In this document: piece by piece, positions 39,760 to 45,263 of the stretch | Layout of the letters: each line of letters opens with the position of its first letter | Numbering within the stretch: the first letter of the stretch is position 1 | DNA from: Rhodoferax sp. OV413 | GTDB lineage: Bacteria > Pseudomonadota > Gammaproteobacteria > Burkholderiales > Burkholderiaceae_C | DNA: 64,000 nt | Assembly: GCA_945861785.1 (NCBI GenBank) | Contig: CAMAWD010000007.1 | Span: 13,730 to 77,729 of the forward strand | Direction: 5' to 3' | Position numbers and translations under genes: made by a program | Notes under the pieces: model-generated | The model's input: only the letters and a program-made list of their open reading frames with translations | Told to the model about the DNA's origin: nothing | The model's database searches: none

Positions 39760-41292
39760 TCAGACCTCCGCCCGGATCGGGATGGTGCGTTTCTTCTCAC
39801 TGCCAAACAGGCTGGTTTCCGACGTGCCCTCGGAGCAGCCATTGCCGAAGCTGAAGCCGCAGCCGCCACGCACGTTGAAGGTGTTCTCGGCGTATTCACG
39901 GTGCGTGCTGGGGATCACAAAGCGGTCCTCGTAGTTGGCGATGGCCATGACGTGGTACATCTCCTCGACCACTTCCTGGCTGATGCCCACCTGGTCGAGC
40001 ACGGCCTTGTTGATGCGCTGGTCGACATGTTTCTCGCGCTGGTAGGCGCGCATGGCCAGCATGCGTTCCAGGGCGCGGACCACGGGTGCGGTGTCGCCAG
40101 CCGTCAGCAGGTTGGCCAGGTACTTGACCGGTATGCGCAGCTGGTTCACATCCGGGATCTGGCCGTTGCTGCCGACGTGGCCGGCGTTGGCGGCAGCCGA
40201 GATCGGCGACAGCGGCGGCACATACCAGACCATCGGCAGGGTGCGGTATTCCGGGTGCAGCGGCAGGGCCACTTTCCACTCCACGGCCATCTTGTAGACC
40301 GGGCTGTTGCGCGCGGCCTCCATCCACTTGTCGGGGATGCCGTCAACACCTGCCTGCGCGATCACCGCCGGGTCGTTCGGGTCCAGGAAGATGTCGAGCT
40401 GTGCCTGGTACAGGTCGCGGTCGTGTTCGACGCTGGCGGCCTGCTGGATGCGGTCTGCGTCATACAGCAACACACCGAGGTAACGGATGCGCCCGACGCA
40501 GGTCTCGGAGCACACGGTGGGCTGGCCGGCCTCGATGCGCGGGTAGCAGAAGATGCACTTCTCGGCCTTGCCGCTCTTCCAGTTGTAGTAGATCTTCTTG
40601 TAGGGGCAACCGCTCACGCACATGCGCCAGCCGCGGCACTTGTCCTGGTCGATCAGCACGATGCCGTCTTCCTCGCGCTTGTAGATCGAGCCCGACGGGC
40701 AACTCGCCACGCAGGCCGGGTTCAGGCAGTGCTCGCACAACCGGGGCAGGTACATCATGAAGGTGTTCTCGAACTGGCCGAGCATCTCCTTTTGCATCTG
40801 CTCGAAGCCGTCGAGGTTCTTGTCCTTGCTGCGCTTGGAGAACTCGCCGCCCAGAATTTCCTCCCAGTTCGGGCCCCAGACGATCTTGTCCATCTGTTTG
40901 CCGGTGATCAGGCTGCGTGGGCGCGCTGTGGGCGTGGCCTTCATCTCGGGCGCCGACTGCAGGTGTGCGTAGTCGAAGGTGAAGGGCTCGTAGTAGTCGT
41001 CGATCTCGGGCAGGTTGGGGTTGGCGAAGATGCGCATCAGGAGTTTCCACTTGGCGCCCTGGCGCGGCTCGATCGCGCCGCTGGCCAGGCGTTGCCACCC
41101 GCCGTTCCATTTGTCCTGGTTCTCCCACTCCTTGGGGTAACCGATGCCGGGTTTGGTCTCGACGTTGTTGAACCATGCGTATTCCATGCCGGGGCGGCTG
41201 GTCCAGACGTTCTTGCAGGTCACGCTGCAGGTGTGGCAGCCGATGCATTTGTCCAGGTTCAGAACCATGCCGATCTGTGCGCGGACTTTCAT
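39760..41292 (-). CDS. narH: Respiratory nitrate reductase beta subunit
   Basis: MKVRAQIGMVLNLDKCIGCHTCSVTCK plus three further Fe-S motifs. Confidence 0.98.
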   Translation of the reverse strand: MKVRAQIGMVLNLDKCIGCHTCSVTCKNVWTSRPGMEYAWFNNVETKPGIGYPKEWENQDKWNGGWQRLASGAIEPRQGAKWKLLMRIFANPNLPEIDDYYEPFTFDYAHLQSAPEMKATPTARPRSLITGKQMDKIVWGPNWEEILGGEFSKRSKDKNLDGFEQMQKEMLGQFENTFMMYLPRLCEHCLNPACVASCPSGSIYKREEDGIVLIDQDKCRGWRMCVSGCPYKKIYYNWKSGKAEKCIFCYPRIEAGQPTVCSETCVGRIRYLGVLLYDADRIQQAASVEHDRDLYQAQLDIFLDPNDPAVIAQAGVDGIPDKWMEAARNSPVYKMAVEWKVALPLHPEYRTLPMVWYVPPLSPISAAANAGHVGSNGQIPDVNQLRIPVKYLANLLTAGDTAPVVRALERMLAMRAYQREKHVDQRINKAVLDQVGISQEVVEEMYHVMAIANYEDRFVIPSTHREYAENTFNVRGGCGFSFGNGCSEGTSETSLFGSEKKRTIPIRAEV

Positions 41293-44200
41293 GCGTTTTC
41301 TCCTTGCGCCTGGGTGGGCCGGACCAGTTCTTCACCCACTGGTGTGTCGAGCCAGTCGATCTTGACCATCTTGCGCACCACCACGAACTCGTCGCGGTTG
41401 GTGCCAATGGTCCCGTAGTAGTTGAAGCCGTAACTGAACTGCGCGTAACCGCCGATCATGTGTGTGGGCTTGAGCACGATGCGCGTCACCGAGTTGTGGA
41501 TGCCGCCGCGCGCACCGGTGATCTCCGAGCCCGGGGTGTTGACGATCTTTTCCTGGGCGTGGTACATCATGACCATGCCGGGGTTGACGCGCTGGCTCAC
41601 CACCGCCCGTGCCGCGATGGCACCGTTGATGTTGAACAGTTCGACCCAGTCGTTGTCCTCGATGCCGGCGATCTTGGCGTCGTCCTCGCTGAGCCACACG
41701 CAGGGCCCGCCGCGGCTCAGCGTGAGCATCAGCAGGTTGTCGGTGTAGGTCGAGTGGATGCCCCACTTCTGGTGCGGTGTGATGAAGTTGAGCAATATCT
41801 CCTTGTTGCCGTTGGAGCGGATGCCATGGATGCCGGCGGTGGTCTTGAGGTCCACCGGCGGGCGGTAGCTGCTGAAACCTTCGCCGAAGGCGATCATCCA
41901 GGGGTGGTCCATGTAGAACTGCTGGCGCCCGGTCAGCGTGCGCCAGGGGATCATCTCGTGCACATTGGTGTAGCCGGCGTTGTACGACACCGTCTCACTC
42001 TCGATGCCGCTCCAGGTGGGTGAGCTGATGATCTTGCGCGGCTGCGCCTGGATGTCGCGAAAGCGGATTTTCTCGTCCTCGCGGTGGATTGCCAGGTGCC
42101 TGTGGTCACGCCCGGTGATCTTGCCCAACGCCTCCCAGGCCTTCACCGCCACATGGCCGTTGGTCTCTGGCGCCAGCATCAGCACCACCTCGGCGGCGTC
42201 GATGTCGGTCTCGATCTTCGGCATGCCCCGGGTTACACCCTCGGCGGTGACCACGCCGCTGAGTTCGGCCAGTTGCCTGACTTCGGTCTGGGTGTTCCAG
42301 GCAATGCCCTTGCCGCCGTTGCCTGCCTTGTTCATCAGCGGACCCAGGGCCGTGAAGCGCTTGAACACGTTGGGGTAGTCGCGCTCCACCACCGCCATCT
42401 GCGGCGCGGTCTTGCCGGGGATCAGTTCGCACTCGCCGCGTTTCCAGTCCTTGACCTCGAACGGCTGCGCCAGTTCACCCGGGGTGTCGTGCATCAGCGG
42501 CGTGAGAACGAGTTCCTTCTCCATACCCAGATGGCCGACGCAGACTTCGCTGAACTTTTTTGCGAACCCCTTGTAGATGTCCCAGTCGCTGCGTGACTGC
42601 CAGGCCGGGTCGACCGCGGTGGAGAGCGGGTGGATGAAGGGGTGCATGTCGCTGGTGTTGAGGTCGTTCTTCTCGTACCAGGTGGCGGTGGGCAACACGA
42701 TGTCGCTGTACAGGCAGGTGGTGCTCATGCGGAAGTCGAGCGTGACCAGCAGGTCGAGCTTGCCTTCAGGGGCTTTGTCATGCCAGACCACCTCGGTCGG
42801 TTTGGCCTCCTGGCTGGCGCCGGGCCGCCCCAAGCCGGCCGCCCCCTGGGGGGAGGCGCGCAGCGCTTCGGGGGGAAATTGTTCTCCCAGGTCCTTGCCT
42901 TGCACGCCATTGCTGGTGCCCAGCAGGTGCTTGAGGAAATACTCGTGGCCCTTGCCGGACGAACCCAGCAGGTTGGAGCGCCACACGAACATGTTGCGCG
43001 GCCAGTTGGCGGGGTGGTCGGGGTCGGTGCAGCTCATCGTGAGCGAACCGTCCTTGAGCGACTTCACCGCGTAGTCCTTCGGGTCCACGCCCGCCTTGAT
43101 CGCGTCCTTGACCACCTGCAGCGGGTTGGTCTGCAGCTGCGGTGCCGACGGCAGCCAGCCCATGCGTTCGGCGCGCACGTTGTAGTCGATCATGCTGCCG
43201 GCATACATTTTTTTGTCGGCCAGTGGCGAAATGACTTCCTCCATGCCTAGCTTTTCGTAGCGCCACTGGTCGGTGTGCGCATAGAAGAAGCTGGTGCTGT
43301 TCATCTGCCGCGGCGGGCGGATCCAGTCGAGCGCAAAGGCGAGTGCAGTCCAGCCAGTCTGCGGGCGGAGTTTTTCCTGGCCGACGTAGTGCGCCCAGCC
43401 GCCGCCGCTCTTGCCGATGCAGCCGCACATCATCAGCATGTTGATGATGCCGCGGTAGTTCATGTCGCTGTGGTACCAGTGGTTCATCGCCGCGCCGATG
43501 ATGACCATCGAGCGCCCCTGGGTCTTGTCGGCGTTCTCGGCGAACTGACGCGCCACCGTGATCAGCTGCGCGCGTGGCGTACCGGTGATGCTCTCCTGCC
43601 AGGCCGGTGTGTAGGGGGTGTCGTCGTCGAAACTTTTTGCCGCCATTTCTCCCGGCAGACCGCGGGCGATGCCGTAGTTGGCCACCTGCAGGTCGAATAC
43701 GGTGGCCACCAGGGCTTCGCGCTGGTCGCCCTCCTTGCCCAGGCTGATGCGCTGTACGGGGACAGTGCGGACCAACACGTCATTGGCACTGTCGCCGTTG
43801 GTGTTGTGCTTGAAGTTCGGGGTGGCGATACCGCCGAAGTAGGGGAAACCGACTTTCGCGGTTTCCGGGTTCGGTGTTTCAGCCTCGAGCACCGACAGGC
43901 GCAGCTTGACCTCGTTGCCGTGGCGCGCTTCCTTGGCCTCCAGGTTCCACTGGCCCTGGTCGGCGCGGCCGTCCGGGCCCCAGCGGAAGCCGATGGCGCC
44001 ATTCGGCAGCACGACCTTGCCCGCGCTGTCGAACGCGACGGTCTTCCACTCCGGGTTGTTGGCCTGTCCGAGCTTGCCGTTGAAGTCGGACGCACGCACA
44101 TAGCGGTCCGGCACCATGATTTTCTCGCCGCCGGGCAGCTCGTGCTCCTTGAGCATCACCAGCATCGGCATGTCGGTGTAGCGGCGCACGTAGTCGTCGA

Positions 44201-45263
44201 AGTAGGCGCTGCGCGTGGTGCGGGCCCCCACGCCGCCTGCTGGCGGCTGCCCCCCGAGGGGGCTGGAAGAACTTGGGGCGGCCCGGCGTTCTTCCCCACC
44301 ATCAGGGAAGTAGAACTCCTTGAGGATCACATGGCCCATGGCCATGGCCACGGCGGCATCGGTGCCCTGCTTGGGGTGCATCCAGATGTCGGACAGTTTG
44401 GCCACCTCCGAGTAGTCGGGCGTGACCGCCACCGTCTTGGTGCCCTTGTAGCGCACCTCGGTGAAGAAGTGCGCGTCGGGCGTACGCGTCTGCGGCACGT
44501 TCGAACCCCAGGCGATGATGAAGCTGGAGTTGTACCAGTCGGCCGACTCCGGCACGTCGGTCTGTTCGCCCCAGACCTGCGGGCTGCTCGGTGGCAGGTC
44601 GCAGTACCAGTCGTAGAAGCTCATGCACACGCCGCCGATCAGGCTCAGGTAACGGCTGCCGGCGGCATAACTGACCATCGACATGGCCGGGATCGGCGAG
44701 AAGCCGATCACGCGGTCGGGACCGTATTTCTTGATCGTGTACACATTTGCCGCGGCGATGATCTCGTTGACTTCGTCCCAGCTCGAACGCACCATTCCGC
44801 CCAGTCCGCGGATCTTTTGGTAGTTGCGCCGCGTGGCCTCGTTCTCGACGATCGAGGCCCAGGCGTCGACCGGGTCGTGCGCCAAACGGGCTTCGCGCCA
44901 GCTCTTGAGCAGGCGACCGCGCACCATCGGGTACTTGACGCGGTTGGCGCTGTACAGGTACCAGCTGTAGCTGGCGCCGCGGGCGCAGCCGCGCGGCTCG
45001 TGGTTGGGCATGTCCCAGCGCGTGCGCGGGTAGTCGGTCTGCTGGGTTTCCCAGGTGACGATGCCGCCCTTGACGTAGATCTTCCAGGAGCAGGAGCCGG
45101 TGCAGTTCACACCGTGGGTGGAGCGCACGATTTTGTCGTGCGCCCAGCGGTTGCGGTAGGCGTCCTCCCAGGTGCGGTCTTCGCCGGTGGTGACGCCGTG
45201 GTCACCTGCGAAGCTTTCGCGGGGGGCAGAGAAGTAGTTCAGTCGATCAAGAAAGTGGCTCAT
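41289..45263 (-). CDS. narG: Respiratory nitrate reductase alpha subunit (1324 aa, with two repeat-derived in-frame insertions)
   Basis: HGVNCTGSC, PRGCARG, SFYDWYCDLPP, GGGWAHYVGQEK, TPHQKWGIHS. Confidence 0.98.
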   Translation of the reverse strand: MSHFLDRLNYFSAPRESFAGDHGVTTGEDRTWEDAYRNRWAHDKIVRSTHGVNCTGSCSWKIYVKGGIVTWETQQTDYPRTRWDMPNHEPRGCARGASYSWYLYSANRVKYPMVRGRLLKSWREARLAHDPVDAWASIVENEATRRNYQKIRGLGGMVRSSWDEVNEIIAAANVYTIKKYGPDRVIGFSPIPAMSMVSYAAGSRYLSLIGGVCMSFYDWYCDLPPSSPQVWGEQTDVPESADWYNSSFIIAWGSNVPQTRTPDAHFFTEVRYKGTKTVAVTPDYSEVAKLSDIWMHPKQGTDAAVAMAMGHVILKEFYFPDGGEERRAAPSSSSPLGGQPPAGGVGARTTRSAYFDDYVRRYTDMPMLVMLKEHELPGGEKIMVPDRYVRASDFNGKLGQANNPEWKTVAFDSAGKVVLPNGAIGFRWGPDGRADQGQWNLEAKEARHGNEVKLRLSVLEAETPNPETAKVGFPYFGGIATPNFKHNTNGDSANDVLVRTVPVQRISLGKEGDQREALVATVFDLQVANYGIARGLPGEMAAKSFDDDTPYTPAWQESITGTPRAQLITVARQFAENADKTQGRSMVIIGAAMNHWYHSDMNYRGIINMLMMCGCIGKSGGGWAHYVGQEKLRPQTGWTALAFALDWIRPPRQMNSTSFFYAHTDQWRYEKLGMEEVISPLADKKMYAGSMIDYNVRAERMGWLPSAPQLQTNPLQVVKDAIKAGVDPKDYAVKSLKDGSLTMSCTDPDHPANWPRNMFVWRSNLLGSSGKGHEYFLKHLLGTSNGVQGKDLGEQFPPEALRASPQGAAGLGRPGASQEAKPTEVVWHDKAPEGKLDLLVTLDFRMSTTCLYSDIVLPTATWYEKNDLNTSDMHPFIHPLSTAVDPAWQSRSDWDIYKGFAKKFSEVCVGHLGMEKELVLTPLMHDTPGELAQPFEVKDWKRGECELIPGKTAPQMAVVERDYPNVFKRFTALGPLMNKAGNGGKGIAWNTQTEVRQLAELSGVVTAEGVTRGMPKIETDIDAAEVVLMLAPETNGHVAVKAWEALGKITGRDHRHLAIHREDEKIRFRDIQAQPRKIISSPTWSGIESETVSYNAGYTNVHEMIPWRTLTGRQQFYMDHPWMIAFGEGFSSYRPPVDLKTTAGIHGIRSNGNKEILLNFITPHQKWGIHSTYTDNLLMLTLSRGGPCVWLSEDDAKIAGIEDNDWVELFNINGAIAARAVVSQRVNPGMVMMYHAQEKIVNTPGSEITGARGGIHNSVTRIVLKPTHMIGGYAQFSYGFNYYGTIGTNRDEFVVVRKMVKIDWLDTPVGEELVRPTQAQGENA
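42818..42876 (+). repeat. GC-rich palindromic element, copy A, antisense and in frame within narG
   Basis: CGCCGGGCCGCCCCAAG-CCGGCC-GCCCCCTGGGGGGA...TTCGGGGGG; encodes FPPEALRASPQGAAGLGRPG in NarG. Confidence 0.8.
44222..44288 (-). repeat. GC-rich palindromic element, copy B, sense and in frame within narG
   Basis: CGCCGGGCCGCCCCAAG-TTCTTCCA-GCCCCCTCGGGGGGC-A-GCCGCCAGCAGGCGGC-GTGGGGGCCC; the 63-bp core 44222-44284 equals 21 codons. Confidence 0.82.

Follow-up and report, generated by a model that had tools for sequence, protein, structure and literature searches.

The repetitive extragenic palindromes (REPs) of bacteria carry a conserved stem with a 5′ GTAG, and the origin or nick hairpins of HUH endonucleases, together with the attC sites of integrons, combine a conserved structure and a fixed unpaired motif with stems that vary freely. 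Palindromic repeats lying in frame within genes are, to our knowledge, textbook material for Rickettsia only. The Rickettsia palindromic elements (RPEs) are ~150 bp long, and nearly half of 44 copies are found in frame within unrelated genes (summarised in PMC10969869). MITEs, the miniature inverted-repeat transposable elements, have also been described inside bacterial genes, in the form of the enterobacterial RU/ERIC repeats (PMC2759123) and the QMITEs of Coxiella (PMC5896051). As a type of event, the in-frame insertion of a palindrome is already known. Here we describe insert B, which lies in narG, the gene for the alpha subunit of respiratory nitrate reductase, within a stretch of 64,000 nucleotides from Rhodoferax sp. 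OV413 (assembly GCA_945861785.1, contig CAMAWD010000007.1, positions 13,730 to 77,729) that is referred to below as the window. Insert B belongs to a family of hairpin repeats, is absent from most relatives, keeps its hairpins where it does occur in other lineages, and has counterparts inside other enzyme genes. It is probably a passenger repeat that narG tolerates in a loop of varying length, behaving in the way that the RPEs do.

The insertion in narG

The limits of insert B are given by comparison with sites that lack it. Of the NarG loci drawn from 40 related genomes, 21 cover the insertion site (site B), and in 19 of these the site is short (FPDGGKPRSA, FPDKGERSA, FDKRSA and similar), the long version being found only here and in one congener (G001). 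In DNA alignments the site is empty in the four closest relatives, with GGCGGCAAACC followed immediately by ACGCAGC, and this genome has exactly 75 extra bases. The first-pass annotation of this DNA had proposed that a palindromic repeat is inserted in frame into a short loop, and this proposal is borne out, since the insert aligns over its full length with 46 units of the repeat family from other genera. Its extent has to be revised, however. The 63-bp core (21 codons) first assigned to the insert is too short when set against the empty sites in the four close relatives, and the original end at position 44288 omits the hairpin arm at 44289-44295 (TTCTTCC on the forward strand), which is part of the unit as the family defines it. 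With the corrected length of 25 codons the insertion remains in frame and a multiple of three.

Translation of the minus strand gives ...GHVILKEFYFPDGG-EERRAAPSSSSPLGGQPPAGGVGARTT-RSAYFDDY... around the insert, in agreement with the predicted EFYFPDGG-EERRAAPSSSSPLGGQPPAGGVGARTT-RSAYFDDY. Site B corresponds to a loop between a helix that ends ...GHVILKEFYF and a helix that starts YFDDYVRRY, and the loop ranges from 6 to 35 residues among NarG homologues. Escherichia coli NarG (1Q16, 1R27 and others) aligns on both sides of the site and has two residues only between D320 and S323, so that the loop is indeed short in homologues as first supposed. An ancestral protein loop without the palindromic DNA in relatives, the picture that had been named as contrary to insertion, is not what is seen on either count: relatives are mostly short-looped, in 19 of the 21 covering loci and in ~100 of 120 database proteins, and the long-looped relatives keep the three-hairpin DNA.

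Despite the inserts, the narGHJI operon and the reading frame of narG are intact. The gene can be read through insert B because the unit is a multiple of three, is free of stops in most frames, as family copies mostly are, and encodes a peptide rich in Gly, Pro, Ser and Ala. The added loop of 25 residues is probably disordered, and we infer that it is harmless to the enzyme. An AlphaFold2 model of NarG residues 1-1196, which is poor overall (pLDDT, the predicted local distance difference test, 47.9) and thus lends weak support, places a helix at residues 301-318, coil at 319-352 (pLDDT <50 at 322-349) and a further helix at 353-362.

The same gene carries a second unit of the repeat family, insert A, in the opposite orientation. 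The two inserts have in common a 17-mer, present as an exact inverted pair at positions 42818-42834 and 44272-44288, for which the chance expectation, with up to 2 mismatches allowed, is 0.09 matches in the window. Insert A is shared only with one congener (G005, locus L003), where 68 of the 69 bases are identical. The features of the gene and of both inserts are collected in Table 1.

Table 1. Positions in the window of narG, its two inserts and the parts of insert B
Feature	Position	Strand	Details and basis
narG (respiratory nitrate reductase alpha subunit, 1324 aa)	41289..45263	minus	intact open reading frame and translation; hosts inserts A and B
Insert B as indel	44215..44289 (+/-3)	minus	75 bp = 25 codons; DNA alignment, empty in L002, L003, L004 and L005, filled in L015
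Insert B as repeat unit	44222..44295	minus	on the gene strand, GGAAGAA arm, 17-mer, TTCTTCC arm, hairpin 2, hairpin 3, TGGGGGCC end; aligned with 46 family copies
Invariant 17-mer CGCCGGGCCGCCCCAAG, loop of hairpin 1	44272..44288	minus	exact match; read R-R-A-A-P-S
Hairpin 1, 5′ arm GGAAGAA (gene strand)	44289..44295	minus	pairs with 44265-44271
Hairpin 1, 3′ arm TTCTTCC (gene strand)	44265..44271	minus	folding, arm covariation, RNAalifold
Hairpin 2, GCCCCC-TCG-GGGGGC	44249..44263	minus	conserved in the family; read P-L-G-G; RNAalifold pairs columns 40-44 with 48-52
Hairpin 3, GCCGCC-AGCA-GGCGGC	44232..44247	minus	stem sequence varies among family copies (AGCGCC/GGCGCT in P0010)
3′ end motif of the unit, TGGGGGCCC (gene strand)	44222..44230	minus	TGGGGGC nearly invariant at the ends of family copies
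Insert A, second unit of the same repeat family in narG	42810..42876	plus (opposite to insert B)	69-bp indel, aligned at ~42820-42888; read FPPEALRASPQGAAGLGRPGASQ

NarG itself has the Pfam domains Nitr_red_alph_N, Molybdopterin and Molydop_binding. Downstream of narG are narH, narJ, narI and a PpiC-type gene, and upstream are two genes of the major facilitator superfamily (NarK-like). The sole congener NarG with insert B (L015, also P0005; G001:C23:2134-5640) lacks ~155 residues (query 692-845) and is still one open frame; the gap takes out site A, and represents either a true deletion or an assembly join in that metagenome-assembled genome. In P0007, a NarG from a JGI metagenome, a different repeat-like segment, RPEPVEGHARQGASTSSVRSG, occupies site A, which therefore seems to accept more than one repeat family.

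A family of hairpin repeats

Read on the CGCC...AAG strand, the repeat unit begins with an arm X of 6-9 nt, the 17-mer, a complementary arm X′ and (A/G)GCCCCCTCGGGGGGCAGCG; there follows a third hairpin, with a stem that differs among copies and often a GAA, GCA or GTA triloop, and the unit closes with (A)GCGTGGGGGC. Insert B has all three features by which family members are recognised, namely the exact 17-mer, complementary arms on either side of it, and a CCCCC-N2-3-GGGGG hairpin with a variable hairpin and a TGGGGGC end beyond. Nearly every copy has hairpin-1 arms of its own, which yet almost always pair, whereas the 17-mer loop that they enclose is fixed. In an ungapped alignment of 53 copies the arms pair in 78% of cells, compared with 44% in shuffles, and their covariation score is 0.775, compared with 0.188, with none of 500 shuffles scoring as high. 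Sliding the partner by 1-3 columns as a control reduces the score to 0.13-0.25, and double changes are seen in all eight pairs. Hairpins 1 and 2 are recovered independently by RNAalifold.

The evidence for structure thus comes from comparison among copies and not from energy. Folding of insert B as RNA, which had been suggested as a check, does yield the hairpins, but its energy is unremarkable (-55 kcal/mol against -51 +/- 3.9 in shuffles, z = -1.0), and folding energy was dropped as a line of evidence, being not significant against shuffles for DNA so rich in GC. Of the stems first described, both inner hairpins are present (hairpins 2 and 3 in Table 1). The outer stem (GGGCC.CCCCA / TGGGGGCCC) competes with the arm hairpin, and since it joins two invariant motifs it is beyond the reach of covariation. 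The stem that is conserved in the family is the one formed by GAAGAA and TTCTTC around the 17-mer, which had gone unlisted.

Two forms of the repeat share the 17-mer, a long form of ~75-85 nt (~15 copies, including both narG inserts) and a short form of ~60-66 nt (~71 copies). Coding calls were made with a codon-usage model trained on the long open reading frames (ORFs) of this genome and with Pfam checks. By these calls at least 6 of the ~15 long-form copies are located in frame within conserved genes for enzymes: two in narG, one in a topoisomerase gene (Topoisom_bac), two in tandem in a gene for an AMP-binding acyl-CoA synthetase and one in a molybdopterin oxidoreductase gene. The topoisomerase insert, of 84 bp, offers a close parallel to insert B: every one of the 12 relatives that possess this gene shows a match broken at one and the same point, and all nine that were aligned there have an empty site. 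The remaining long-form copies lie at gene junctions, and several begin 0-3 bases from a stop codon. The same DNA unit also occurs outside coding sequence and in genes that are unrelated, in either orientation and in more than one frame. On average 5.1 of the 6 frames of a family unit are free of stops, compared with 4.6 in shuffles; freedom from stops was considered as a special property of the element and rejected, because it is mostly a matter of base composition.

The tandem pair of long-form units (C43:12144-12316) is spaced at 84 bp, in frame, in an acetoacetyl-CoA-synthetase-like AMP-binding gene whose Pfam AMP-binding match ends at residue 432, ahead of the units. The short form, found for example at loci outside the window (C8:37370-37498, C28:19920-20057, C177:176-315 and C10:106928-107044), is often in tandem and has the pattern ATGAGC-(17-mer)-...-GGAGG/GAAGG-N5-8-ATG. 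This pattern supplies in turn a start codon, a mini-ORF (MSAAPGRPKQARTAVRSTKVP closed by a stop, or in-frame MSPPGRPKGEYRSAQHEGTL-M...), a Shine-Dalgarno-like motif and the next start. Where the flanks of short-form copies score as coding (49 of 58 copies) the gene is always co-directional with the element and in no case runs in the opposite direction, and these copies sit at gene starts or at stop/start junctions within operons. One 375-nt contig, from Achromobacter sp. ESBL13 (L069), consists wholly of a tandem array of at least 5 units with a period of 82-83 nt and identical arms, implying that arrays grow by local duplication and probably break assemblies.

How widely is the family distributed? 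The exact 17-mer occurs 27 times in this 7.1-Mb genome and 4-55 times in each of 24 congeners out of 24, where the reversed sequence used as a control gives 0; 16 genomes belonging to other families of the order had none. When one genome per species was scanned, the exact 17-mer was recovered in at least 119 stretches. Among the matches listed, nearly all records that name a taxon are betaproteobacterial (Burkholderiales, Rhodocyclaceae, Thiobacillus), the genera being Hydrogenophaga, Polaromonas, Rhodoferax, Variovorax, Acidovorax, Xenophilus, Ramlibacter, Roseateles, Ideonella, Methylibium, Caldimonas, Achromobacter, Pigmentiphaga, Castellaniella, Burkholderia, Zoogloea, Sulfurisoma and Thiobacillus; the exceptions among them are a few uninformative titles and one metagenome-assembled genome labelled Gammaproteobacteria. 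Rfam covariance models gave no match at E <= 1 between positions 42500 and 44600 of the window and none at E <= 0.1 in six tandem-copy loci, and a literature text search with parts of the 17-mer returned unrelated animal papers only. The repeat family appears to be undescribed. Copies of the 17-mer were also located close to where the narG match ends, at a distance of no more than ~150 bases, in three congeners (G020:C186:798-814, G013:C2:272054-272070 and G001:C23:5786-5802), implying that the nar locus of relatives also has extragenic units.

Origin and history of the inserts

Why does the same repeat occur at one codon position in NarGs that are not each other's closest relatives? Homologues taken from a database of 5.8 billion proteins include ~13 other NarGs with a B-like segment (RRAAPS..PLGG..GG.G) at the same position and at least 6 more with A-like segments; a close NarG carrying insert A as well as insert B bears the name Ramlibacter sp. 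In a tree made from 97 NarGs with the insert columns left out, insert B requires at least 8 changes of state and insert A at least 9, and the sister of this genome's NarG is without both. A single clade of B-carrying NarGs is rejected by the approximately unbiased (AU) test (p = 1.4e-6, log-likelihood difference 542), a result for a group that was named after the tree had been seen and for which the margin is large. The DNA of four B lineages (P0002, P0004, P0010 and P0012) keeps the three hairpins. P0002 and P0004 have the arms of this genome (GAAGAA/TTCTTC) and its hairpin-3 stem, while P0012 and P0010 have arms that are different but pair, P0010 also having a compensated hairpin-3 stem, AGCGCC/GGCGCT. 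Three types of arm are thus present at site B, GAAGAA/TTCTTC, ACGAC..GCGC/GCGC..GTCGT and GGAC/GTCC. In P0013, from Candidatus Accumulibacter sp. UW26, site B holds the second half of a B-type insert only (FPGGQPPESGVKARTARSE), apparently after an internal deletion of part of the element.

Copies with the same arms look identical by descent, yet the NarG backbones that carry them are not sisters, which points either to recombination among narG alleles or to precise losses on several occasions. Those with other arms may have arisen by separate insertion into a favoured site. We regard it as possible, though not the likelier course, that the same codon position was colonised several times independently, as a preferred and seamless target; the other possibility is a single insertion with subsequent spread or loss. 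The dispersal of B-carrying NarGs over the tree, the three types of arm and the different repeat at site A in P0007 speak for repeated colonisation. On the other side, all B copies have one orientation, one reading frame and the short version of hairpin 3, the copies of this genome, G001, P0002 and P0004 have identical arms, suggesting identity by descent even though their backbones are not sisters, and the three pairs of filled and empty sites show no common target motif or duplication. Sliding-window comparison and flank identity of alleles with and without insert B gave no clear signal of a recombination patch around site B, since this region is conserved in all alleles.

The reading of insert B as a tolerated passenger has to be set against several observations that weigh on the other side. 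A pure passenger should drift at the neutral rate, yet the inserts change less than synonymous sites. Between insert B and the G001 copy 9 of 75 bases differ, when third codon positions differ by 30% (p = 1.7e-4), and insert A differs from the G005 copy at 1 of 69, when third codon positions differ by 31% (p = 3e-10). The 36 paired positions out of 78 contain just one of the 12 sites that vary among the copies of this genome, P0002 and P0004 (p ~0.004). The hairpin-1 arms differ in every copy here, which is a poor fit to recent copying from a single master element. To these must be added the want of a mobilising gene: Y1 transposase-like genes are neither next to copies nor distributed in step with the 17-mer. 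The low divergence implies either that the inserts are younger than the species splits, through re-insertion or transfer, or that the hairpins are constrained.

If the hairpins are constrained, the element might be retained in narG because its nucleic-acid structure acts, whether in the mRNA (stability, or a pause of translation while cofactors are loaded) or as DNA (a site for protein binding or for nicking), so that selection and not youth would explain the intact stems. The divergence far below that of third codon positions, the placing of most substitutions outside stems, the different yet pairing arms and hairpin-3 stems of the distant copies P0010 and P0012, and a 17-mer loop that is invariant over many genera would all follow. 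We nevertheless think such a role unlikely. Most NarGs, including the two closest relatives, are without insert B, the G001 copy appears to be decaying, with 5 of its 10 changes in stems, and there is no match to an Rfam family; recent insertion or transfer predicts equally low divergence; and insert A lies in the opposite orientation in the same gene, which makes a single RNA-level role for both inserts improbable. A broader proposal, about which we are doubtful although somewhat less so, is that the repeat is not a decaying passenger at all but a structure-specific element, either a site folded in single-stranded DNA for some enzyme or a functional RNA hairpin, in which a fixed loop and varying but always pairing stems are selected even within coding sequence. 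Seamless entry and exit at favoured positions would then account for the occupation of the same NarG codon in unrelated lineages.

It is very improbable that the segment is ordinary lineage-specific protein sequence, an adaptive loop whose likeness to the repeat is coincidental or secondary. The segment is translated and a similar peptide recurs in the ~13 NarGs, but the census of the family already contradicts this explanation, through the non-coding and differently framed copies noted above; what is conserved is the DNA, as an exact 17-mer with pairing arms, and insert A, which presents the other strand of the same element to the gene, encodes a different peptide. An error of assembly or binning is scarcely credible either. 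The genome is metagenome-assembled, in 202 contigs with an estimated contamination of 4.55%, but the frame is intact, and the same insert at the same site in independent NCBI, JGI, ENA and Logan assemblies, one of them on a 3.46-Mb contig, makes an artefact very unlikely.

We conclude that insert B is best understood as a repeat that narG tolerates, and envisage its history as follows. Insert B is a single complete unit, of ~75 bp, of a short GC-rich repeat with several hairpins that occurs commonly in Burkholderiales and in betaproteobacteria related to them. Its entry into narG probably postdates the formation of the NarG family and took place where a loop varies in length among homologues, leaving the gene open and giving the enzyme a loop of 25 residues. 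The element presumably spreads as DNA, by a seamless mechanism without target duplication, and its scattered occurrence among NarGs may reflect one or a few old insertions followed by recombination of narG alleles, precise loss, or re-insertion at a favoured site.

Neither target-site duplication nor hairpin arms copied from the target were seen at the narG-B, narG-A and topoisomerase pairs of filled and empty sites. A search for a mobilising gene found none: this genome has two Y1 transposase-like (Y1_Tnp) genes, neither flanked by the repeat, and no Y1 homologue was found within 880 kb around 119 copies. A single-copy Y1 gene is present in 23 of the 24 congeners, but also in 10 of the 16 genomes that lack the 17-mer. 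A Y1-like protein is encoded at C28:31844-32134. One of the Y1 transposase-like genes (C92:3064-3381) has, in the ~700 bases downstream of it, several direct repeats GACCCC(A/C)GGCTGT(T)TGT and duplicated copies of its own 3′ end, a separate repeat system.

Relation to known repeat systems

These findings show the process known from Rickettsia operating in betaproteobacteria that are free-living and GC-rich, and in an enzyme central to respiration, and a single genus offers both filled and empty alleles. They provide a natural test of how far a large molybdoenzyme tolerates a foreign loop, and point to a possible source of new protein segments. In practical terms, inserts of this kind make proteins longer and can lead alignments, annotations and predicted structures astray. 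The family, with its fixed loop and copy-specific stems in many genera and its lack of a match in Rfam or the literature, merits a proper description, and its copy-specific arms, its low divergence inside genes and its recurrence at the same NarG position are worth following.

Among described repeats, the bacterial MITEs resemble the present family in being small and non-autonomous, in carrying open frames and in being able to fuse in frame with host genes. MITEs are defined, however, by terminal inverted repeats and target-site duplications, and no duplication is present at the three comparisons made here. As for terminal pairing, GCCCCA in the 17-mer is able to pair with the TGGGGC of the opposite end; the pairing is short and imperfect, and as both motifs are invariant covariation is uninformative on it.

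REPs and bacterial interspersed mosaic elements (BIMEs) share with the family GC-rich hairpins, often in tandem and usually just past stop codons or between the genes of an operon. The GNA-type triloops of the present hairpins, moreover, suggest recognition in single-stranded DNA, as for REPs and their associated transposases (RAYTs). In contrast, REPs are extragenic by definition, whereas insert B and at least 5 other copies are intragenic, others being intergenic and abutting stop codons. The present repeat further differs in having a stem that varies, a loop that is fixed and no GTAG, and the Y1 genes are unflanked by it. A fixed loop with variable stems is reminiscent of the HUH-endonuclease hairpins and attC sites, which are recognised in folded single-stranded DNA, an analogy drawn from general knowledge; no HUH enzyme or integrase associated with the repeat was identified.

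The closest likeness is to the RPEs. Both are short palindromes, and in both a large share of the copies (here at least 6 of ~15 in the long form) lies in frame in unrelated housekeeping genes, adding a peptide and leaving the gene unbroken. The differences lie in the host, betaproteobacteria as against Rickettsia, in the size, ~75-85 bp as against ~150 bp, and in a very GC-rich sequence that here occurs in both orientations and in several frames. Whereas the RPE families have a conserved sequence and a conserved peptide, the present family has an invariant loop and arms that are different in each copy. We therefore treat the repeat as an analogue of the RPEs and not as a member of them, set apart by host and size.

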